A DNA stretch of 34,024 nucleotides from Promethearchaeia archaeon (GTDB taxonomy: Archaea; Asgardarchaeota; Lokiarchaeia; Sigyniarchaeales; SOKP01): the NCBI GenBank assembly GCA_029856125.1, contig JAHQWJ010000065.1, positions 1 to 34,024 of the forward strand, read 5' to 3'. Both the position numbers and the translations under genes were made by a program. Every line of letters starts with the position of its first letter. Positions within the stretch are counted from its first letter, which is position 1. Of the stretch, positions 1 to 25,215 are shown piece by piece. Below the pieces are notes generated by a model, which searched no databases, was not told where the DNA came from, and worked only from the letters and a program-made list of their open reading frames with translations.

Positions 1-111
1 AGCTAATTCCCCTTTAAATGGTGGATTTTTCCTACGAATTAAAATTATGTGATTTTCAGGGTATTTTATAACAGCGTCAACAGCTACTAGTGGAGTTATA
101 GGTTTTGGCAT
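1..111 (-). CDS. NUDIX hydrolase (ADP-ribose pyrophosphatase-like), N-terminal part; runs off the window
   Basis: Not in the ORF track. Hand translation from ATG at 111 gives MPKPITPLVAVDAVIKYPENHIILIRRKNPPFKGELA, the typical P-x-x-A-V-D-x-V-I...L-I-R-R-x-x-x-P-F-K-G segment preceding LPGG and the Nudix box. The start lies 2 nt after the stop of the upstream gene. Confidence 0.8.
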   Translation of the reverse strand, partial: MPKPITPLVAVDAVIKYPENHIILIRRKNPPFKGELA

Positions 112-113
112 TA

Positions 114-920
114 TTAATCATCCCACACAACTGAGCTCAATAGATGTTCTATACGCGTTCGACGCGGCCTTACAAATTTTGTACGCCCTAACTTTCGTTC
201 TAAAAGCAGATGCCTTTCGAGGTTTGTAGAATTTACCATATATACTTCAAGATCACCTTCATTCAAAATAATGTGATTGAAGCTAGGACTATCGTCTGCT
301 CTAACTTTATTGGAAGTAGATGTGCCACAGTAGAGGAATGTTGTTGGTCCGATTACGTAAGCGTGTGGAACGTGTCTATGTCCCATTAAAACCAAATCTA
401 ACTCAAATAGTTGGGTAAATTCGAGAATTTCTCCAGCGTCTCTTACGGTTGTGAATTTTTGTCCAGAAAGAGGTACGGGGATTAAGTGATGGTGCAATGC
501 CATTATTCTATTTTCGAGGTTTTTGTTAAATTGGCGACCGACCCAATCCAATTGTTCATCTCCGCATTCTCCATGACTTATATCGTCTCTAGCGCTGCAA
601 ATACCGACGATTAGAGTGTCCTTATCTTCTAGGATTAATCTTGATCTTCTTGGACCAATAAGTCTTTCGAAAAAGATTATTCCACTATTCTTTACGTCGT
701 GATTCCCAGGCACCGCTAAGAATCTTGTAGCTTCTCGAATTCTATTTATATAGGGTAAAATCCCTTTAAATTGAGTTATTCTTCCTTTATGTATTAGATC
801 TCCAGTGCATATTACAGCATCAGGAGAATTATATTCAATATATTTGATAACATTTTCCATATATTCAGGTACAAACTCAGAACCATAATGTAAATCGCTT
901 ATTTGTATGAGATTAACCAT
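114..920 (-). CDS. Calcineurin-like metallophosphoesterase (CpdA/Icc-like)
   Basis: All five family motifs are present in order: SDLH, TGD, GNHD, LHHH, GHRH. Confidence 0.9.
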   Translation of the reverse strand: MVNLIQISDLHYGSEFVPEYMENVIKYIEYNSPDAVICTGDLIHKGRITQFKGILPYINRIREATRFLAVPGNHDVKNSGIIFFERLIGPRRSRLILEDKDTLIVGICSARDDISHGECGDEQLDWVGRQFNKNLENRIMALHHHLIPVPLSGQKFTTVRDAGEILEFTQLFELDLVLMGHRHVPHAYVIGPTTFLYCGTSTSNKVRADDSPSFNHIILNEGDLEVYMVNSTNLERHLLLERKLGRTKFVRPRRTRIEHLLSSVVWDD

Positions 921-12893: not shown

Positions 12894-13280
12894 ATGGATG
12901 AAGATGGGTTTGACGAAGAATTTGATGAGGATTTTGATGAAAACTTGGAGGAAGATTATGACGAGCGCTCTACAAAGCACCCTACGAAAGATTTTAGAGC
13001 CAAGACCCCAGAACACAAAACCTCTTCTGAAGGAAAAAAGATCTCAGTTTTTTTTCTATCCACTATAGGCCCAGGGGAGAAAAAACAAAAATTGCTTGTA
13101 TTCACAGGGAATAAAGTTGGAGACATCAAAGAAACTGTAGCAAATTTATTTGCTTTAGACCCATCTGATTTTTACCTTAGTTCTGGAGGTGTAACTATGG
13201 ATGAGAATAACCAGTTAAATGATTACGATGTAGTTGACGGAGATGACATTTTATTAATTCCAGCTAGCATTGCTGGTTGA
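12894..13280 (+). CDS. Ubiquitin-fold modifier, paralogue A (acidic N-terminal tail, ends in a free Gly: IPASIAG)
   Basis: Beta-grasp pattern ISVFF...KLLV...VGDIKETVANLF.LDP.DFYL..GG..MDEN.QLNDY.V.DGDDILLI; about 70% identical by hand count (56/81) to the core of 17280..17609. Confidence 0.85.
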   Translation: MDEDGFDEEFDEDFDENLEEDYDERSTKHPTKDFRAKTPEHKTSSEGKKISVFFLSTIGPGEKKQKLLVFTGNKVGDIKETVANLFALDPSDFYLSSGGVTMDENNQLNDYDVVDGDDILLIPASIAG

Positions 13281-15466: not shown

Positions 15467-16255
15467 TTATTTTTTTCTCGATGGAATCAAAGCAATTTCG
15501 TCATCATCATCAATAAAATAGTCCTTTATTTGCTTAGTTTCATCTAATATTATACCACCTGTGGAAAGGAGAAAATCTTCTAAACCATAATCAAATAGAA
15601 TTCCTACTTGTTCCTTGATTATATCTATGAATTCGGAGGTTTCAATAATGATGATTTTAGTTCTCTCCCCCGGTTCGACTAACGATCTTACATAAACCCG
15701 AACTTTATCATCCATTCCAATTGTGGTTAATGGAGGGTGGTATGTTATCTGTTCATCAGTTAAATCTTTATTTTTCCAAATATCATCAATAAGTTGCTTT
15801 CTCTCATCAGCATCAAAATACAACATCTCTCTGATAAAAAAGATTTTATCCATTTTTGAAAACCCTAACAAATCGATTTTATCTAATACTTCCTGAGTGA
15901 AAAATGTAAAAATATAATCATCGATTGACTCTATGTTTTCAAAGGATTCATCAGTATCAGCGTATTGATCTATTAATGGCATAGCTTCGATGTAATCCTC
16001 AACCAGATCGCGTGATATCCTTTTGACAGATTTTGGGTTTTGATAATATTTTTCTTTTTTTATCCTCTTTCCTGGGCTGCTTTTAGATTGAACAACGGTA
16101 TAAATCGTGCCTGTAGATAATACAGCAACGCTTCCAATAGTTAGAAAAAGAAATAAAGGTAAACTCTCTATTTGTAATAGGAAGAAAATCAAATAGATTA
16201 AAGCGAAAACAACATAAAGAGTAATAATATTTAAAACTCTGTATTTTTTCTTCAT
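15467..16255 (-). CDS. Membrane protein with two N-terminal TM helices and a C-terminal ubiquitin-fold domain (paralogue B, no terminal Gly)
   Basis: Two hydrophobic segments in the first 55 aa. The C-terminal VRVYVRSLVEPGERTK...DIIKEQVGILF....DFLLSTGGIILDETKQIKDY..DDDDEIALIPSRKK aligns by eye with the two soluble UBLs. Confidence 0.8.
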   Translation of the reverse strand: MKKKYRVLNIITLYVVFALIYLIFFLLQIESLPLFLFLTIGSVAVLSTGTIYTVVQSKSSPGKRIKKEKYYQNPKSVKRISRDLVEDYIEAMPLIDQYADTDESFENIESIDDYIFTFFTQEVLDKIDLLGFSKMDKIFFIREMLYFDADERKQLIDDIWKNKDLTDEQITYHPPLTTIGMDDKVRVYVRSLVEPGERTKIIIIETSEFIDIIKEQVGILFDYGLEDFLLSTGGIILDETKQIKDYFIDDDDEIALIPSRKK

Positions 16256-17279: not shown

Positions 17280-17609
17280 ATGAGTTTTGAAGAAGATTTT
17301 GATGAGGAATTAGAGCCAGTTAACTCTAAAACCCCATCAAGCAAAGTACCCTCAACAGGCAAGAAATTGACATTATATTTCATGTCAACTATTGGTCCTG
17401 GTGAAAAGAAGGAAAAATTGACTGTAAACGACGCTAATGAAGTAAGTGATATCAAACAAACGCTAGGAAATCTATTTGGACTTGATCCAGACGATTTTCA
17501 TATTTCATCCGGAGGAGTAACAATGGATGAGAATAGCCAGTTAAAAGACTATAGTGTTAATAATGGCGACGACATTCTTTTAATCCCAGCGAGTACAGCT
17601 GGTAAATAA
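17280..17609 (+). CDS. Ubiquitin-fold modifier, paralogue C (pro-form, ends IPASTAG-K)
   Basis: Beta-grasp pattern with ubiquitin-like QLKDY; first gene of the E1-E2-JAMM-RING operon; single penultimate Gly, no di-Gly. Confidence 0.88.
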   Translation: MSFEEDFDEELEPVNSKTPSSKVPSTGKKLTLYFMSTIGPGEKKEKLTVNDANEVSDIKQTLGNLFGLDPDDFHISSGGVTMDENSQLKDYSVNNGDDILLIPASTAGK

Positions 17610-17703
17610 AAGCTGGATACTTTTAAATAATTCTTTTCATAAAATATAATATATAATAAGGGCACTAAGCCCTTCAATTTTTTTATTTTTTTGATTAATA
17701 TTA

Positions 17704-18939
17704 ATGGTGATAATAATGGGTAAAGATTCAGATTTTTTTGCAAAAGGAATGTCAGAGGAAGAGAGAGACTTATACGATCGCCAATTTCGTTTAGAAGGAT
17801 GGTCCCAAAAATTAGTTAAGAATTCAAGAGTGTTAATAGCGGGTGTAGGGGGTTTGGGATGTGAAATTGCTAAAAATTTGGCTATGTTAGGTGTAGGTCA
17901 TATAGATCTTGTTGATATTGATATAATTGAACATTCTAATCTGAACCGTCAAATTCTCTTTGCTGGAGCAAAGTTAGGAGAACCTAAAGCATTTATTGCT
18001 GCTAGAAAATTGACTGAAATTAACCCCAATATTATTGTTAAAGGGTATCATACATCCTTAGAAAGATTAAATCCAGCACTCTATCACGCTTCAGATGTTG
18101 TAATTGGAGGTCTTGATTCGATGAATGCAAGGTTGAACTTAAACGCTCAATGCATTAGATTTAAAAAACCTTTGGTAGATGGGGGGGTTTCTGGTTATTA
18201 TGGTCACATATATACGATATTTCCATATCAAAATGCATGTTATGAATGTAATCCATTACCAGACATCAAGAATGATGATATGGCAGCTTGTACAGTAGTT
18301 GGAATCCCTCGAAAAAGAATTCATTGTGTTTTTAAAGGAGATATGGCCTTTAAAGAGAAATTTGACAAAGATCCGAATCCTAAAAATATCGAGGATATCA
18401 AATTTATTCAAAAAGTTGCAAATGAATACGTAGTAAAACACAATTTCTTACCTGAATATACTGAAGATGATGTCGTAAAAATTATTGATCGCCACGATCC
18501 AGGGATCATTACGATTAACGCAACTATTTCAGCATTACAATCTCACGAAGTGGTTAAAATCCTTCATTGGGAAAAAGGTCACAAGGGTTTAGGTGAGCCC
18601 ATCAAAAATTACATTATATTTAATGCAGTGACTATGAAATTACACCACATTGAAAAGAAGAGAAATCCAGAATGTTCTCAATGTGGTAAAAGTGCAAGAC
18701 GAGTTTCCATTAAAATGAGAGATATTTCACCTTGCGTAAATATAATTAAAACACTAGAAAGAAATGGATTTGAATTGGATTCTGAATTTGAACCGATAAT
18801 AACTCTATTGGATTTTAATGATATTATTGTTTTAGATTTAGAGCAAAATCCAACTCAAAACGGTTTAAGGAATTACGAATTTCTAACTGTTGCGGGGTTT
18901 AAAGGTGGAGAAATTTACGTAACCTTAAAAATTAAATAA
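17704..18939 (+). CDS. Ubiquitin-like activating enzyme E1 (ThiF/MoeB adenylation domain + UBA2/UBA3-type catalytic Cys domain + putative C-terminal ubiquitin-fold domain)
   Basis: YDRQFRL, GVGGLGCEIAKNL, D-x-D-x-IEHSNLNRQ-x-LF, LDS-x-x-AR, Zn ligands CYEC and CSQC, catalytic segment ACTVVGIPR-x-x-IHC. Confidence 0.93.
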   Translation: MVIIMGKDSDFFAKGMSEEERDLYDRQFRLEGWSQKLVKNSRVLIAGVGGLGCEIAKNLAMLGVGHIDLVDIDIIEHSNLNRQILFAGAKLGEPKAFIAARKLTEINPNIIVKGYHTSLERLNPALYHASDVVIGGLDSMNARLNLNAQCIRFKKPLVDGGVSGYYGHIYTIFPYQNACYECNPLPDIKNDDMAACTVVGIPRKRIHCVFKGDMAFKEKFDKDPNPKNIEDIKFIQKVANEYVVKHNFLPEYTEDDVVKIIDRHDPGIITINATISALQSHEVVKILHWEKGHKGLGEPIKNYIIFNAVTMKLHHIEKKRNPECSQCGKSARRVSIKMRDISPCVNIIKTLERNGFELDSEFEPIITLLDFNDIIVLDLEQNPTQNGLRNYEFLTVAGFKGGEIYVTLKIK

Positions 18940-18996: not shown

Positions 18997-19524
18997 ATGA
19001 GTATAAGAAGTAGTCGAGTTTCCCGAGATTTTGCGGGACTAAAAAAGTTGCTAAAGCAGGGTACTATTATTCAATTGAAGCCATTTAATCCAAAAAAGAA
19101 GAGCATCGATCACTTAGCTTTATTGATTAAAGGTCCTAAAGGTACTGCCTATGCTGGGGGATTGTTTAAATTAGAAATGAAGTTTCCAGTTCAATATCCT
19201 AAACAACCTCCTTTTGTCCGATTGCATACTCCTATATGGCATCCAAATTTTTGGCCAAAACCAAGTGAGTATAAAGGACAAAGAAATATTTGCTTAGCTT
19301 TAGTAGATCCATCTCTAGTTGGAAAAAAAGGGGGATGGAGTCCTTCAAAAACAGCAGTTACAGTCGTTCAATCAATTATTGCTATGTTAAACACTCATGG
19401 AAAATATGTTAATCCAACTGATGTGTTTAATAAAAAAGCAGCTATAGAAATGATGAAAAATCCGAAATTTTTTGATAAAAAAGTAAAAACTTTAGTAAAG
19501 AAGTATGCCAAGGATAAATGGTGA
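18997..19524 (+). CDS. Ubiquitin-conjugating enzyme E2 (UBC fold)
   Basis: GP-x-GT-x-Y-x-GGLF-x-L...FP..YP..PP...TPIWHPN...ICL...WSP...VVQSIIAML. Confidence 0.95.
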   Translation: MSIRSSRVSRDFAGLKKLLKQGTIIQLKPFNPKKKSIDHLALLIKGPKGTAYAGGLFKLEMKFPVQYPKQPPFVRLHTPIWHPNFWPKPSEYKGQRNICLALVDPSLVGKKGGWSPSKTAVTVVQSIIAMLNTHGKYVNPTDVFNKKAAIEMMKNPKFFDKKVKTLVKKYAKDKW

Positions 19525-19531
19525 ACCTAGA

Positions 19532-20335
19532 ATGAATTTCGATGAAAAGAATAGCGATTCTATCAGAGATGCTATAAAACAAAGAATTAAAGAGAAAATT
19601 AAAAAAGAATTACTTGAAGAAGTATACACAGAATTACAATTAGAAGAATTACAAGAAGAATTAACAACAGAAATTATCAAGGCGAAACCTATAGTTCATT
19701 CAAAAGAATTCAAAGCAAAACTTGAACCCATCCCGATGGAACCAGTAAAAACTACAGCTAGCAATGACAGAACTAAAGCTAAAATAGCTATCACTTCAAC
19801 AGCAATTCTTAAAATCGCGAGTCATTCATTAAAATATGCTAATTCTAAAATACATAGAGATGATTGGGTGGAAGTAATAGGTTTACTAGCAGGGAACTTT
19901 GATAGTTCTAAAGGAATCCTAAATCTGGAAGATGCTTATCCAATGGGACATGGAACAGCGGTCTATGCTGAAATAAAGGATTATAAGAATTATGTTAGAG
20001 CTTACAGAGATATTAAAAAAAAGGGACTGTTTATATGTGGTTGGTATCATTCTCATCCTTCTTATGGATGCTTCATGTCAAGAGAAGATTTAGGAACTCA
20101 AGCAAGATATCAAAAATTGTGGAATAAAGCTGTAGCACTCGTCATCGATCCATATCAAATTAACGGGAAATCGTTTGGTTTTGAAATTTATCGTGCAAAT
20201 TTTAAGACCAGGAAATGGTTCTCAGTGCCTTTTGATATTAAGGGGCATTTAGATGTGATGATGTTACCCGAAATTTTAGAATTCATGAACCCAATAATTG
20301 ATGGCAAACCAGTATATTTAGAATATGATGAATAA
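19532..20335 (+). CDS. JAMM/MPN+ metallo-isopeptidase (Rpn11/CSN5-like) with an N-terminal helical extension
   Basis: EVIGLLAG, GWYHSHP-x-YG-x-x-x-S-x-x-D-x-x-TQ, VALVIDP. ATG 19532 follows GGTGA (the track opens at 19505). Confidence 0.93.
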   Translation: MNFDEKNSDSIRDAIKQRIKEKIKKELLEEVYTELQLEELQEELTTEIIKAKPIVHSKEFKAKLEPIPMEPVKTTASNDRTKAKIAITSTAILKIASHSLKYANSKIHRDDWVEVIGLLAGNFDSSKGILNLEDAYPMGHGTAVYAEIKDYKNYVRAYRDIKKKGLFICGWYHSHPSYGCFMSREDLGTQARYQKLWNKAVALVIDPYQINGKSFGFEIYRANFKTRKWFSVPFDIKGHLDVMMLPEILEFMNPIIDGKPVYLEYDE

Positions 20336-20368: not shown

Positions 20369-21493
20369 ATGGCAAGAAATAAAACTACACCAATAATATT
20401 TACTATTTTTCTAATAATTGGTGCAATCCATGGGTTACTCTCCTATTCTTTTTCTAATTTTGCGACTTGGTTATTAATTGGGTTATGGTTAATTTTTACA
20501 TTAAAGATATTTGGAAACATAAAACGTCACCGTGAGTTTAATTCACCGCATAATACTGCATTTTTTGTCATCGTTCCATTAGGTATTGGAATTTTTTATT
20601 CTATATGGGGATTTTATACTGGCATTTTAGGAGAAAACCTTCTTGGAGGAGTATATTTTAGTTTATGGAGCCTAATTTTTGCCTTTCCTTACGTATTATT
20701 TGGTTCTTACTCTTTATATCGTTGTTTTAAGAAATACAATGTAATATATTTTGGAACAAAAGCAGTAAAAGCTAGAGCGTTGGGATATATCCTATCATTT
20801 TCAGTTCTAATTTTTATTTTAGCCTATTGGATAAGTTTCTATAGTGGTATTGAGAGTATTCCATTGGATCTTAATCTCTTACTGCTATTAATAGCTACGA
20901 TTTTAATAGTTATAATTTTTGGGTTTACTAATACACGCTCATCATTACCAGCAATAACTCGTGATTACATTGCAAACCGTACTAGAACGATTAATAATTT
21001 AACCACACCTACAACACAGAGACAACGTGTACGGACAACGAGGGTAACTAACCCAACTCCATCTACTAGAACAACTACGCGCACAACAAGATCAAGAACT
21101 CAATCATCAAGGGCAACACCCACATCTCGTAAGCAAACTAATAGATCTAAAACATCAAATGTAACTCGTACCACTAGAGTCAAACCGACTCCAAAAATTC
21201 GAGATATTAATAAGTTTAAACCAAGAGCATCATATTTATCATTAGAGGATTTTAAGTGCATCTTTTGTTTTAAATTACCAAAACTTCCTGAAGATAGAGG
21301 ACGAGGAGTAGTTGTGTGTCCGAATTGTAGGTATCCTTCTCACGCTGACGAATTTAAAGATTGGATGCGAACTTCAAACCTTTGTTCACGCTGTAGTGCA
21401 TCTATTCCATCTAGTTTTAGGCGTAATCCAAGAGTAATAAGCATAAAAAATTATGTGATAATCTATAAACAATTTTTAAAGAAAAAAGCGTAG
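20369..21493 (+). CDS. Polytopic membrane protein with a C-terminal RING-like zinc finger (putative membrane E3 ligase)
   Basis: About six hydrophobic helices, a Thr/Arg/Ser-rich linker, then C-x2-C-x16-C-x2-C-x4-H-x2-E-x3-W-x6-C-x2-C; last gene of the E1/E2/JAMM operon. Confidence 0.8.
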   Translation: MARNKTTPIIFTIFLIIGAIHGLLSYSFSNFATWLLIGLWLIFTLKIFGNIKRHREFNSPHNTAFFVIVPLGIGIFYSIWGFYTGILGENLLGGVYFSLWSLIFAFPYVLFGSYSLYRCFKKYNVIYFGTKAVKARALGYILSFSVLIFILAYWISFYSGIESIPLDLNLLLLLIATILIVIIFGFTNTRSSLPAITRDYIANRTRTINNLTTPTTQRQRVRTTRVTNPTPSTRTTTRTTRSRTQSSRATPTSRKQTNRSKTSNVTRTTRVKPTPKIRDINKFKPRASYLSLEDFKCIFCFKLPKLPEDRGRGVVVCPNCRYPSHADEFKDWMRTSNLCSRCSASIPSSFRRNPRVISIKNYVIIYKQFLKKKA

Positions 21494-21641: not shown

Positions 21642-22199
21642 ATGAATAACGAAAGAGTACAAGAACTTATAACACATCTTATTAAAGAAATTGAGGGAAA
21701 TGATCATTTACGACCAGCAACGAAAGAAACTCCAAAACGAGTAGCTAACGCTTATAACGAAATATTTGAAGGTTATCAACAAGATTTAGATAAGGATATA
21801 AAAATTTTTAAAGCGCAATATAGTGAAATTATTGTATCGAGAGGTATTCAATTTTATAGCATGTGTGAACACCACATCTTACCCTTTTATGGTACAGTTG
21901 ATATTGTATATATGCCTGGAGAATTTCTTTTAGGTATATCAAAATTCGTTAGAGTAGTTAATTATTTTACACATAGGTTAAATGTTCAAGAAAAAATGAC
22001 CGATGATATTGCTAATTATTTAATGAACTGCATTTTAAAACCAAGAGGAGTAATGGTTATAGTCAAAGGAACTCACTTGTGTGAGATAATGAGAGGTGTA
22101 AAACAATCTAACCCAATAATGGTTACCTCGGCTATAAAAGGAATATTTAAAACAAACCCTACGAGCAGATCAGAGGCATTGGAACTTCTAAAGATCTAG
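21642..22199 (+). CDS. folE: GTP cyclohydrolase I (type IA)
   Basis: ETPKRVA, FYSMCEHHILPFYG, GISKF, RLNVQEKMT, HLCEIMRGV. Confidence 0.95.
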   Translation: MNNERVQELITHLIKEIEGNDHLRPATKETPKRVANAYNEIFEGYQQDLDKDIKIFKAQYSEIIVSRGIQFYSMCEHHILPFYGTVDIVYMPGEFLLGISKFVRVVNYFTHRLNVQEKMTDDIANYLMNCILKPRGVMVIVKGTHLCEIMRGVKQSNPIMVTSAIKGIFKTNPTSRSEALELLKI

Positions 22200-22263
22200 A
22201 AACATCGTAATATCTTAATTGTAAAATTTTTAAATTAAAAAAGAAAAAACTTCTGAGCGTCTT

Positions 22264-23433
22264 ATGCCTAGAACGATCATTTACAGCGATTATGGTTTGA
22301 TTGGAGACGAATTGGAACTAAAAACGAATGTTTCGATAGAAATAGATAAAAATGGAAAGATCGCTAAACTTGTTTATGATAATATTCGAGATGATATTAC
22401 TTACTCGAATCAACCAAATTACATTATGATTCCAGGGCTAATAAATTCCCATATTCATATTTGCGATAGTTTTGCTAAAGAACAGGGTTTTAATAAAGAT
22501 TTATTAGAAGTTGTTGCTCCTCCAGATGGGTTAAAGCACAAATTGTTAGGAAGTATCTCAAAAGAGATTAAAACGCAAGGAATAAGAGAAGCAGCTTCAG
22601 AAATGCTAGCGAATGGTATAACTTCGTTTGTAGATTTTAGAGAAAATGGATTAACGGGTATAAATCTTTTAAAAGAGGCTTTAGATAATTCTCCAATTAA
22701 TTATCGTATTTTGGGAAGATATAACAATTCGGAAGATGCGAAATCCGTTCTGAAAAACGCTGATGGATTAGGTTTTGCGAGTTATGATCAACTTCCTCCT
22801 AAACATAAAGAAAATTTAGTTTTATTGAAAGAACAAAATTTAGAGAAAACTATTGCGTGTCATGATGCTGAGCTCTCGAGGGATGAGTTCCTGTTTAATA
22901 AAATAATAGATGACAAATTAATAGATGTCATTATACATGGAACGCAGTACACAATAGAAGATTTAAAAAGAATTAAGGAGAATAATATATCTTTGGTCTT
23001 ATGTCCTAGATGTAACGGTTATTTTGGAAGTGGATTTCCACCGATAAGCGAGATTACTAAGTTGGGAATCCCTATAAGTCTTGGTACTGATAATGTAATG
23101 GCAAACAATATTGATTTATTCGAAGAGATGCGTTATTTGTATAGAATTTCCCGTGTATTAGCAACCGGTAAGGAAGATAGTCATTTATCATCAAAAGAAT
23201 TACTAAAAATGGTTAGTGTTAATGCAGCTAAAAACATGGGATTGCATAAAGAGTTCGGGTCAATTTCAGAGGGCAAGTATGCAGATTTCTCTTTATTGAA
23301 TCTTTCTGATCCAAACTACTATACATATAAGATTGATAAAGAAAATATTTATAATATCATTGTTCAAAGAACAAAATCAGAAAACATAAAGAAGACATAT
23401 ATTAAAGGTGAGGTTGAATTTGAAAGGAATTGA
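22264..23433 (+). CDS. Metal-dependent amidohydrolase/deaminase (SsnA/chlorohydrolase-like)
   Basis: PGLINSHIH, G-x-T-x-FVDFRE, CHDAE, IHGT, VLCPR, LGTDN, GSI-x-x-GK-x-AD. Confidence 0.88.
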   Translation: MPRTIIYSDYGLIGDELELKTNVSIEIDKNGKIAKLVYDNIRDDITYSNQPNYIMIPGLINSHIHICDSFAKEQGFNKDLLEVVAPPDGLKHKLLGSISKEIKTQGIREAASEMLANGITSFVDFRENGLTGINLLKEALDNSPINYRILGRYNNSEDAKSVLKNADGLGFASYDQLPPKHKENLVLLKEQNLEKTIACHDAELSRDEFLFNKIIDDKLIDVIIHGTQYTIEDLKRIKENNISLVLCPRCNGYFGSGFPPISEITKLGIPISLGTDNVMANNIDLFEEMRYLYRISRVLATGKEDSHLSSKELLKMVSVNAAKNMGLHKEFGSISEGKYADFSLLNLSDPNYYTYKIDKENIYNIIVQRTKSENIKKTYIKGEVEFERN

Positions 23434-24088
23434 ACGCCCTTACGTAATTTTGAGTGCTGCGATGACAATTGATGGAAAAATTGCTTCTAAAACGGGTGAT
23501 CCAGATATTTCAGATGAAGAAGATTGGAAATTGGTTCATAAACTTCGAACTGAAGTAGATGCAATTATGGTTGGTAAAGGTTCAATTATATTGGATAACC
23601 CAAAACTACACATTAAATATTACGAGCACAAAGGTTATTATCGCGTTGTATTAGATAGCAATCTTTCAATACCAATTGGATCAAATGTGGTAACTTATAA
23701 ACCTGATATTTACCCCACTATTATAGTAACGACTGAAAATGCTCCTATCGAGAAGATTAAAGAATTCGAATCCAAAAAAGTTGAAATTATAAAGTCAGGT
23801 AAAGGGCGTAGAGTTGATGTAGTTGAATTAATGCCCATTTTGCATAATAAGGGAATAAAAAGGATTCTTTTAGAGGGCGGAGGTAATTTAAATTGGAGTT
23901 TTATTAAAAATAATTTAGTAGATGAGATTAGATTAGCAATTGCGCCTTGGATGGTTGGAGGTAAAAATGCCGTGAGTTTAGTGGAAGGAGATGGTTATGC
24001 AAAGATGCTTGAGAGTCCAAGATATTATTTATCTGATGTGAGTAGTAGAAATAACTATGTAACTCTTAACTATAAAAAAGAAAAATGA
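23408..24088 (+). CDS. 2,5-diamino-6-(ribosylamino)-4(3H)-pyrimidinone 5'-phosphate reductase (RibG/Rib7/ArfC-type, RibD C-terminal domain)
   Basis: RPYVILSAAMTIDGKIA, VHKLR..VDAIMVG, DNPKL, RVVLDS, LLEGGG.LNWSF..LVDEI. Start may be TTG 23420 after GGTGA. Confidence 0.88.
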   Translation: MRLNLKGIERPYVILSAAMTIDGKIASKTGDPDISDEEDWKLVHKLRTEVDAIMVGKGSIILDNPKLHIKYYEHKGYYRVVLDSNLSIPIGSNVVTYKPDIYPTIIVTTENAPIEKIKEFESKKVEIIKSGKGRRVDVVELMPILHNKGIKRILLEGGGNLNWSFIKNNLVDEIRLAIAPWMVGGKNAVSLVEGDGYAKMLESPRYYLSDVSSRNNYVTLNYKKEK

Positions 24089-25215
24089 TGAATCTTTCAC
24101 AGAAAGTAGAAGAACTGGAACATTTAACAATTAAAAAGTTAAAAGAAAAAATTAAAAACATTAAGAAGGAATTACCAAGAGAAGAACAAAACATAATCAC
24201 ATTTTCGAAGAACTTTACACTTTCCCTATCAAATTATTGTCAGAATCAATGTGGATATTGCTTCTATAACCAAACTATACCTAAAGAAAATAATGAACAA
24301 AATATTGTGTTAATTAAGAAGGATAAAATTAACGAATTAATTCAGACTGCAGTAAGGTATGGATGTACTGAAGCTTTATTAATGTCTGGCGAAGCTCCTG
24401 ATAATTTCAAAGTAGTTCAAGAAGAATTGAACAAAAGAAATTATCGTGATTTCTTCCAATTTGTTAGAAATTTAGGTGAATCTTTGTTAGATGTAAATCT
24501 TTTACCTCATACTAATATAGGTGTGCTCTCGTTTGCTCAATTAAAAAGCTTAAAGGAATTTAACGCTAGCATGGGATTAATGATTGAAAGTACTTGCGAA
24601 TCTCTTTCTAACCTTGGAGGAGTTCACGAAAATTCGCCCGGTAAAACACCAGAAAACCGAATTAAGCACATTACAAACGCAGGAAAATTAAAAATTCCTT
24701 TCACAACAGGTCTATTATTAGGGATCGGGGAGAAATTTCAAGATCGCGTAAAAGATCTTCTATTAATTAAAGAACTCCATCATAAATATGGTCATATCCA
24801 AGAAGTAATAATACAAAATTTTACAGAAAAAATAGGGATTCATTATCGCCCTAATAAGCCTATATCTATTGAAGAAACGCTCAAAACTGCAGGAATTGCA
24901 AAATTTATACTTGGAAATGACATTGCTATCCAAGTTCCACCTAATCTAATCCAAAATTACGAGAAAGAAGCCTTAAAAATGGGAATTGATGATTTTGGAG
25001 GTATATCTCCTTTTACTTTAGATTATATTAACCCGAAACACGCGTGGCCTAAAATTGACTTCTTAGATAAGATATGTGAAAGTAATGGATATAAACTTAT
25101 GGAAAGACTTCCTATATATAAGAAATATGTGAATAAAAAGGGTTTTTGTTCAGAAAAAATTAAAAAAACGATAAAGAATATTAACCACAATGTCGGAAGT
25201 AAAACAAATTCTTAG
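24085..25215 (+). CDS. cofG: FO synthase subunit 1 (radical SAM)
   Basis: ITFSKNF, CQNQCGYC, GCTEAL, LPHTN-x-G, NASMGLM-x-E, SPGK, PFTTGLLLGIGE, GHIQEVIIQNF, IQVPPNL, DDFGGISP...NP..AWP. Confidence 0.93.
   Translation: MMNLSQKVEELEHLTIKKLKEKIKNIKKELPREEQNIITFSKNFTLSLSNYCQNQCGYCFYNQTIPKENNEQNIVLIKKDKINELIQTAVRYGCTEALLMSGEAPDNFKVVQEELNKRNYRDFFQFVRNLGESLLDVNLLPHTNIGVLSFAQLKSLKEFNASMGLMIESTCESLSNLGGVHENSPGKTPENRIKHITNAGKLKIPFTTGLLLGIGEKFQDRVKDLLLIKELHHKYGHIQEVIIQNFTEKIGIHYRPNKPISIEETLKTAGIAKFILGNDIAIQVPPNLIQNYEKEALKMGIDDFGGISPFTLDYINPKHAWPKIDFLDKICESNGYKLMERLPIYKKYVNKKGFCSEKIKKTIKNINHNVGSKTNS

Follow-up and report, generated by a model that had tools for sequence, protein, structure and literature searches.

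A gene at 17704–18939 (plus strand) of a 34,024-nucleotide stretch of Promethearchaeia archaeon DNA (assembly GCA_029856125.1, contig JAHQWJ010000065.1; hereafter the window) encodes a 411-aa E1 activating enzyme, identified as such by its open reading frame (ORF), its motifs, a Pfam ThiF match, its fold and its position in a phylogenetic tree. In the Asgard-archaeal assembly of 3.69 Mb the window is contig C65, and the gene is the second of a co-directional five-gene cluster that also encodes a ubiquitin-like modifier (Ubl), an E2, a JAMM protease and a membrane zinc-finger protein. In its architecture the protein matches the catalytic subunits of canonical eukaryotic E1s, most closely UBA3 and then UBA2. 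It probably functions as a self-sufficient E1, i.e. a UBA3/UBA2-type catalytic chain which keeps its own arginine finger and most likely forms a symmetric homodimer; the probability of this reading is estimated at roughly 0.7.

Sequence motifs of the E1

The reading frame is open and begins with ATG, and a second in-frame methionine (M5, at position 17716) may be the true start, since many orthologues are 407 aa long. The product matched the Pfam ThiF model (PF00899) with an E-value of 1.7e-57 and a score of 194.7 bits, the cut-off of the model being 28.1. It has the hallmarks of this superfamily: a Rossmann-type adenylation domain with the GxGxxG loop, the Asp residues that bind ribose and Mg, and the NLxRQ, K and D motifs.

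The following elements were distinguished along the chain (all on the plus strand): (i) an N-terminal arginine-finger helix, Y24-D-R26-Q-F-R-L (17773–17793; assigned by conservation, the offset to MoeB and the predicted interface), which opens the longer motif Y24-D-R26-Q-F-R-L-x-x-W33-x-Q35; (ii) the ATP-binding loop G47-x-G49-x-x-G52 (17842–17859); (iii) a first zinc pair, C179-x-x-C182 (18238–18249), in the context A-C179-Y-E-C182-N-P and aligned with C158/C161 of SAE2; (iv) a crossover loop with the predicted catalytic cysteine C196 (18286–18327), which reads A-C196-T-V-V-G-I-P-R-K-R-I-H-C208-V; (v) a three-helix catalytic-cysteine domain, delimited from the secondary structure of the model (residues ~205–262; 18316–18489); (vi) the helix P266-G-I-I-T-I-N-A-T-I-S-A-L (18499–18537), which is aligned with SAE2 IPAIATTNAVIAG, forms the core of the predicted dimer interface and is the counterpart of the eukaryotic P-A-x-x-x-T-N-A, being followed by E282-V-V-K-I-L; (vii) a second zinc pair, C324-x-x-C327 (18673–18684), within R-N-P-E-C324-S-Q-C327-G; and (viii) a C-terminal ubiquitin-fold domain (UFD) of the E2-binding type, recognized through fold matches (residues 331–411; 18694–18936).

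Conservation was assessed in an alignment of 41 sequences with identities down to 28%. The residues G47, G49, G52, D71, D73, N79, Q83, K95, D138, R143, C179, C182, C196, C324 and C327 are invariant in this set, and Y24, R26 and C208 are conserved in at least 90% of the sequences. The motif set as a whole is far beyond chance expectation. Every motif listed in an earlier note, which had been made from the sequence alone, was found at its position in the ORF, and the features of the UBA2/UBA3 type (the crossover cysteine, both CxxC zinc pairs, the TxNA helix and the UFD) were borne out by alignment and fold.

Fold and predicted catalytic cysteine

The strongest PDB sequence matches of the E1 were SAE2/UBA2 (130 bits), the active adenylation domain of Uba1 (127 bits) and UBA3 (123 bits; residues 35–334), followed by MoeB (115 bits), ThiF (89 bits), UBA4 (68 bits), SAE1 (61 bits), UBA5 (55 bits) and ATG7 (39 bits). 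The AlphaFold2 model has a mean predicted local distance difference test score (pLDDT) of 88.8, and only the N-terminal 7 residues and the crossover loop (189–197) are of low confidence; the latter has values below 50, as expected for a mobile loop. A Foldseek search with this model placed UBA3 chains first (E-value 2.7e-31, ~417 columns), ahead of SAE2, Uba1 and MoeB. Full-chain superposition with VIA-align matched 381 residues (18..411) with UBA3 (Z 30.4) and residues 25..411 with SAE2.

The catalytic-cysteine domain is an insertion of ~57 aa composed of three helices (205–220, 229–245 and 254–261), and it is missing from the MoeB-like paralogue encoded in the same genome. When this domain was searched in isolation against Pfam, only sub-threshold matches were obtained. 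The last 83 residues of the protein, folded in isolation, gave a model with a pLDDT of 94.8, whose best PDB matches were nearly all UFDs of UBA3 and UBA2 (3fn1_A, with a template modelling score of 0.72 and a root-mean-square deviation (rmsd) of 2.1 Å; 4w5v_B, 2lq7 and 1y8x_B). By its modelled fold the C-terminal domain is thus a UFD, with a predicted role in E2 recruitment.

In the PDB sequence match, C196 (A-A-C-T) is aligned with C173 of SAE2. It is also aligned with the “PMC-T” cysteine of UBA3 (index 208 of 1tt5_B, which becomes 237 in the 463-aa chain through an offset of 29 residues) and, by offset, with C600 of Uba1. These three residues are the active-site cysteines of their enzymes and point to C196 as the predicted thioester-forming cysteine of the E1. 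The distribution of the motif was surveyed in the best 150 representatives of an exhaustive HMMER search (28,634 matches at E ≤ 1e-3), in which, apart from archaeal single-chain E1s, only proteins of the UBA1, UBA2 and UBA3 types had the CT..P..H[CT] crossover motif. The arrangement typical of canonical E1s, a “C-T...P...H” crossover cysteine followed by an inserted catalytic-cysteine domain, is therefore present in the archaeal protein.

Phylogenetic position and distribution

A tree of 68 rows and 402 columns was inferred with IQ-TREE (LG+C20+F+G4 with posterior mean site frequencies) and rooted on five MoeB-like rows. One clade (support 99/95) comprises 19 archaeal single-chain E1s, including the 411-aa protein (91/90), together with a eukaryotic catalytic group (100/98) made up of UBA1-active, UBA2 and UBA3 rows and one archaeal row; MoeB-like and mid-sized ThiF proteins fall outside this clade. 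The 411-aa E1 falls among archaeal sequences that are sister to the eukaryotic catalytic E1s, and outside the UBA1/2/3 clade itself. The earlier note had regarded grouping with MoeB, UBA4 or UBA5 as fatal to its proposal; grouping with the MoeB-like rows was not seen in this tree.

This placement bears on the possibility that the enzyme is a MoeB/UbaA-like adenylyltransferase of a sulfur carrier, serving molybdopterin, thiamine or tRNA thiolation via a Ubl thiocarboxylate, with the conjugation features vestigial or secondary. MoeB/ThiF are indeed the best superposition partners of the adenylation core together with its N-terminal helix (Z ~31, rmsd 1.6–1.8 Å), the top NCBIfam matches are ThiF/MoeB models (although the ThiF, MoeB, UbaA and Ube1 models all score far under their own cut-offs), and archaeal SAMP/UbaA systems serve both roles. 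However, the genome carries a separate, canonical MoeB/ThiF-like gene (246 aa), and the E1 differs from MoeB in having the crossover cysteine, the catalytic-cysteine domain and the UFD, while a rhodanese domain is absent from it. The gene also lies in one operon with those of a JAMM protease and an E2 of the UBC type, and it is split from the MoeB-like rows with the 99/95 support given above. A sulfur-carrier function is thus very improbable. The same features set the protein apart from the minimal architecture of MoeB/ThiF.

Orthologues were sought in 121 genomes of the phylum (E ≤ 1e-40). Full-length orthologues with at least 77% identity were found only in the window's own family, mainly in two genera; those with 56–68% identity occur in a third genus of this family and in three other families, and those with 42–46% identity in three more families. 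For many families no orthologue was detected at E ≤ 1e-40 in these genomes. Close homologues of the E1 carry the names Promethearchaeota, Lokiarchaeota, Hodarchaeota and similar. Extreme conservation across Asgard classes, which was considered because matches of at least 79% identity are named Loki-, Hod-, Thor-, Heimdall- and Odinarchaeota, was rejected: the restriction of identities of at least 77% to one family indicates that the labels of the metagenome-assembled genomes are inconsistent and that the E1 is not hyper-conserved.

The arginine finger and the predicted homodimer

According to the structural alignment (model residues 14..328 onto MoeB 2..248), R26 corresponds by offset to Arg14 of MoeB. 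In UBA1, the equivalent residue Arg57 contacts the γ-phosphate position, as does its MoeB counterpart (review PMC12355090). In the survey of 150 representatives, an N-terminal YxRQ was found in MoeB-like proteins, in archaeal single-chain E1s and in the N-terminal (inactive) halves of UBA1-like proteins, and not in UBA2-like proteins. The YxRQ segment is thus an ancestral arginine-finger helix, general to the ThiF/MoeB fold, which the E1 has retained. The earlier note had read YDRQ as a marker of SAE1/NAE1, and the enzyme as a combination of both subunits of the heterodimeric E1s. The helix and the UBA2/UBA3 features do share one chain, but the motif is general to the fold and not specific to one subunit; its occurrence in MoeB-like proteins, in other archaeal E1s and in the inactive domain of UBA1 argues for a retained ancestral trait instead of a mixture of two subunits.

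Modelling of two copies of the E1 with ESMFold2, supplied with a sequence alignment, gave an interface score (ipSAE) of 0.82, compared to 0.00 for the best of three controls. Among proteins of known structure, 20 of the 30 solved as pairs of one chain attained this mark, as did 1 of the 23 solved as single chains. Three dimer runs agreed in at least 91% of the contacts, with a partner pLDDT of at least 83. The predicted interface is the same on both copies (residues 22–31, 54–62, 77–88, 264–284 and 304–315) and is the classical one of E1/MoeB (ThiF-fold) proteins, in which the YDRQ helix would pack against the P-loop helix and the NLNR segment of the partner.

A homodimer could still work asymmetrically (half-of-sites), one of its protomers serving merely as the scaffold during any given cycle, so that the division into active and inactive parts would exist without gene duplication. 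Asymmetry of the UBA4 homodimer and trans-binding in UBA5 (review PMC12355090) are precedents for such behaviour, and two mobile catalytic-cysteine domains and two UFDs arranged around one core could clash sterically. The predicted dimer is, however, symmetric, with identical interface lists, and nothing in the sequence marks two states, which makes this variant unlikely in comparison with a symmetric homodimer.

Candidate partner subunits

The genome contains four ThiF-family genes, encoding the 246-aa MoeB-like protein, the 411-aa E1, another E1 of eukaryote-like type (527 aa; contig C128; L003:1441-3024; 36% identical to the 411-aa E1) and a 286-aa ThiF protein with an intact nucleotide-binding motif (contig C152). 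Neither the operon nor this set of four genes contains a recognizable degenerate partner of the regulatory-subunit kind. The claim of the earlier note that the operon lacks a separate regulatory subunit therefore agrees with its ORFs and their Pfam matches. An inactive partner domain supplying the arginine finger, as in canonical E1s, was thus not identified, and the 411-aa protein has a YDRQ helix of its own.

The 527-aa E1 has a larger insertion, with ~90 aa of extra helical sequence ahead of its CxxC. A gene for a second UBC-type E2 (C128:14851-15285, minus strand) lies ~2 kb from it. The same organism has two separate E1/E2 sets.

Either the 527-aa E1 or the 286-aa protein might nevertheless pair with the 411-aa E1 in a heterodimer, by analogy with SAE1-UBA2 and NAE1-UBA3. 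Such a pairing would draw on the presence of four ThiF-family genes in the genome and on the position of the 286-aa protein near inactive domains, on a very long branch, in a tree that included those domains; this placement was flagged as being at risk of a long-branch artefact. The 527-aa E1 shares the whole architecture of the 411-aa protein and co-occurs with it in most genomes of the genus, which also counts against self-sufficiency. However, both candidates keep GxGxxG, the Asp and NLxRQ, so that neither looks degenerate, and neither is encoded in the operon, the 527-aa E1 having the nearby E2 gene as its own. Moreover, two genomes (G019 and G030, 98–100% complete) contain an orthologue with 63% identity, while no second match was detected at E ≤ 1e-40 with the query used, which does not prove its absence, and the 411-aa E1 keeps the arginine finger that is lost in catalytic domains with a dedicated partner. 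A heterodimer is thus doubtful, and a self-complementing homodimer is preferred.

Tandem E1s of Asgard archaea

A natural comparison is provided by proteins with two ThiF domains. An 800-aa match of this kind belongs to a family of 21 clusters of 730–880 aa (one of them represented by a 549-aa fragment), from organisms named Lokiarchaeia, Sigyn-, Hodarchaeota and Promethearchaeota. In 17 of the 21, the N-terminal half keeps YARQ and GxGxxG and is devoid of DxD and SNLxRQ. YxRQ is missing from the C-terminal half in all 21, whereas DLD, SNLSRQ and both CxxC pairs are present there (the fragment has a single pair), as is the C-T...P...H-C motif in 19/21. In one representative aligned in detail, the N-terminal half has neither CxxC nor a catalytic-cysteine domain, and the C-terminal half ends in a UFD.

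The tandem C-terminal half groups with the 527-aa E1 of the present genome (support 100/98). The arginine finger is lost by the catalytic domain where a second ThiF domain is fused to it and kept in the single chains, which is the pattern expected of self-complementing homodimers. The layout, inactive followed by active, is like that of UBA1 or SAE1-UBA2, in archaea. No mention of this tandem family was found in the literature searched. The tandem proteins are P0129 (L014:1291-3693) and P0299-P0318; P0129 is encoded ~700 nt downstream of a gene for an 85-aa ubiquitin.

The conjugation operon and adjacent genes

The order of the five genes is identical in other Asgard genomes, including a closed chromosome of 3.34 Mb. 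The first gene (17280–17609, plus strand) encodes a Ubl of 109 aa ending in ...IPASTAG-K, which matched Pfam ubiquitin (E-value 1.6e-5) and, weakly, ubiquitin entries of the PDB. An alignment of its orthologues showed that they end in ...IPAS[TI]AG, i.e. in a conserved “AG” C-terminus with a single Gly and without Gly-Gly. An Asgard Ufm1 homologue has been reported (PMC12962969), but for the operon Ubl only generic ubiquitin-family signals, and none of Ufm1, came from Pfam, from a sequence search of the PDB and from Atlas features. A Ubl paralogue encoded 4.4 kb upstream (12894–13280) likewise ends in ...IPAS[TI]AG, with one exposed Gly, and a 262-aa ORF (15467–16255, minus strand) has a weakly ubiquitin-like C-terminal region (Pfam E-value 0.028).

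A GC-rich stem-loop followed by a T-run, terminator- or attenuator-like by its match to the consensus, is located between the Ubl and E1 genes (17658–17684, plus strand). Such a structure could raise the expression of the Ubl relative to that of the enzymes.

The three remaining genes, all on the plus strand, follow the E1. The first encodes a UBC-type E2 of 175 aa (18997–19524; Pfam UQ_con, E-value 2e-25) with an HPN motif and a catalytic cysteine, the latter aligned with the catalytic cysteine of Ubc15. The second (19505–20335) encodes a JAB/MPN (JAMM) metalloprotease with an intact H-S-H-P-x7-S-x-x-D motif (Pfam JAB, E-value 5.1e-14). The last (20369–21493) encodes a multi-pass membrane protein, recognized from its sequence and conserved in position in other genomes, which has a linker rich in Thr, Arg and Ser and carries a Cys/His zinc finger (C-x2-C...C-x2-C-x3-H...C-x2-C) at its C-terminus. 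Pfam searches gave only sub-threshold zinc-ribbon and RING matches for this finger, and the protein is a candidate RING-like E3.

Downstream of the operon (21642–25215) there are genes for GTP cyclohydrolase I, an amidohydrolase and radical-SAM proteins, and orthologous loci contain a RibD_C-like reductase. This flavin/F420-type biosynthesis cluster adjoins the operon in two Hodarchaeota loci (L012 and L013) as well.

Discussion

The features described above suggest the following working scheme. The E1 is the activating enzyme of the five-gene Ubl conjugation operon, and C179, C182, C324 and C327 form its structural zinc site. The trailing Lys of the Ubl would be removed, probably by the JAMM protease, exposing the C-terminal Gly. 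In the E1 dimer, R26 of either protomer would most likely complete the ATP site of its partner, in the manner of MoeB/ThiF. The exposed Gly would be adenylated, after which the Ubl would be moved to Cys196 as a thioester and passed on to the E2 docked on the UFD.

Several points weigh against this reading of the enzyme as a self-sufficient homodimer. Dimers of MoeB, ThiF, UBA5, SAE1-SAE2 and NAE1-UBA3 have been solved, and the in silico dimer, while agreeing with the homodimer put forward in the earlier note, may reproduce the interface of these homologues; it shows likeness to them and is no proof of dimerization. The reach of R26 into the ATP site of the partner was deduced from interface lists and alignment offsets, not from coordinates, and the chemistry proposed for the E1 family is deduced from sequences and models. 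No Pfam UFD model matched the isolated C-terminal domain by sequence, and the Foldseek E-values of its UFD matches are modest (~1e-3). As regards the tree, the labels of its rows derive from architecture and Pfam domains instead of curated names, and the support of the archaeal clade is 91/90. Named UBA4, UBA5, ATG7, SAE1 and NAE1, which did not occur among the best 150 representatives, are not part of it; rows labelled by architecture and, in a first tree, UBA1-like N-terminal halves took their place.

The careful 68-row tree was built without inactive domains. In the tree that included UBA1 N-terminal halves, these form a long branch in an unresolved polytomy, so that the origin of the inactive-domain lineage was not placed. 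The earlier suggestion that the enzyme resembles the pre-duplication ancestor of eukaryotic E1s agrees with the tree and with the logic of the motifs, although a single extant protein cannot demonstrate ancestry, and the position of the inactive domains does not settle the matter. It is nevertheless conceivable, although we rate it somewhat below an even chance, that the E1 family is a living pre-split state, i.e. a symmetric homodimer with two full active sites, two mobile catalytic-cysteine domains and two UFDs that activates an “AG” Ubl for a membrane-anchored zinc-finger ligase, the fused inactive-active tandem form being already present in sister Asgard lineages.

The passage from symmetric bacterial MoeB-type dimers to asymmetric eukaryotic E1s, in which one half works and the other serves as scaffold, has yet to be explained in the history of ubiquitin signalling, and the 411-aa protein joins derived canonical traits (catalytic-cysteine domain, UFD) with those of an ancestral, self-sufficient dimer. 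If the above interpretation is true, the single-chain and tandem Asgard forms would allow the origin of E1 asymmetry to be reconstructed experimentally, and the active/inactive duplication may predate eukaryotes. A small E1 encoded in one operon with its cognate Ubl, E2 and protease is also convenient for structural and mechanistic work.

Comparison with known systems

E1-like proteins of Caldiarchaeum subterraneum and Asgard archaea have been described as having a ~60-aa catalytic-cysteine domain and a C-terminal ubiquitin-like (UBL) domain, with the NEDD8 E1 as the closest structure (PMC5654768 and its supplement). In phylogenetic trees they adjoin eukaryotic E1s, and they have been reconstituted, as single polypeptides, with an E2 and a RING E3 (PMC5654768; review PMC11354881). 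A Helarchaeia E1, purified separately, works with its E2 and RING E3 (bioRxiv 10.1101/2023.07.25.550441). The 2017 supplement (PMC5654768) describes its E1 model as containing two Rossmann fold domains, one “inactive” and the other active, and no explicit statement of a homodimer or of a trans arginine finger in Caldiarchaeum/Asgard E1s was found in the literature searched.

The present enzyme corresponds to these proteins (clusters I/II of Hennell James et al. 2017, PMC5654768) in being a single chain of ~410–430 aa with a ThiF domain, a ~60-aa catalytic-cysteine domain and a UBL/UFD, in the make-up of its operon (genes for a Ubl, an E2 of the UBC type, a protease of the JAB/Rpn11 type and a protein with a zinc finger or RING), in having the NEDD8 E1 as the closest solved structure, and in its position beside eukaryotic E1s and not MoeB. 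Its domain order, operon and host are those of the archaeal eukaryote-like E1s; thioester transfer itself is predicted. It differs from them in forming a distinct branch (~30–40% identity to other archaeal single-chain E1s), in the “AG” ending of its Ubl in place of Gly-Gly, and in its putative E3, which is a multi-pass membrane protein. Both the family and its place in E1 evolution have been published before, and the 411-aa E1 is a further case. The refinement proposed here for archaeal E1s, a homodimer with the arginine finger acting in trans, may be new and is incremental; the gain lies in a sharper, testable claim (homodimer, R26 in trans) and in the contrast with the tandem forms, and not in a new kind of system.

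UBA3 and UBA2, the best sequence and fold matches, show the same order of adenylation domain, “C-T” crossover cysteine, catalytic-cysteine domain, TxNA helix, second CxxC and UFD, and the four-cysteine zinc site is common to both sides. In contrast to the archaeal protein, they have larger catalytic-cysteine domains and are devoid of the YxRQ helix (as the survey showed for UBA2-like proteins). UBA3 and UBA2 depend on NAE1 and SAE1, respectively, for the arginine finger.

The likeness to MoeB/ThiF extends over a core of ~230 residues (1.6–1.8 Å; 30–35% identity) and includes the YxRQ helix, two CxxC pairs and the predicted interface, whereas the “C-T...P...H-C” crossover cysteine, the catalytic-cysteine domain, the UFD and an E2 partner are missing from those proteins. 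With UBA1, bacterial BilD and the tandem Asgard E1s, the enzyme shares the features of the catalytic domain and an arginine finger coming from a second ThiF domain, as predicted here for the partner protomer. However, those proteins fuse a degenerate, inactive domain to the catalytic one, while the present E1 has only one ThiF domain, a fully active one.

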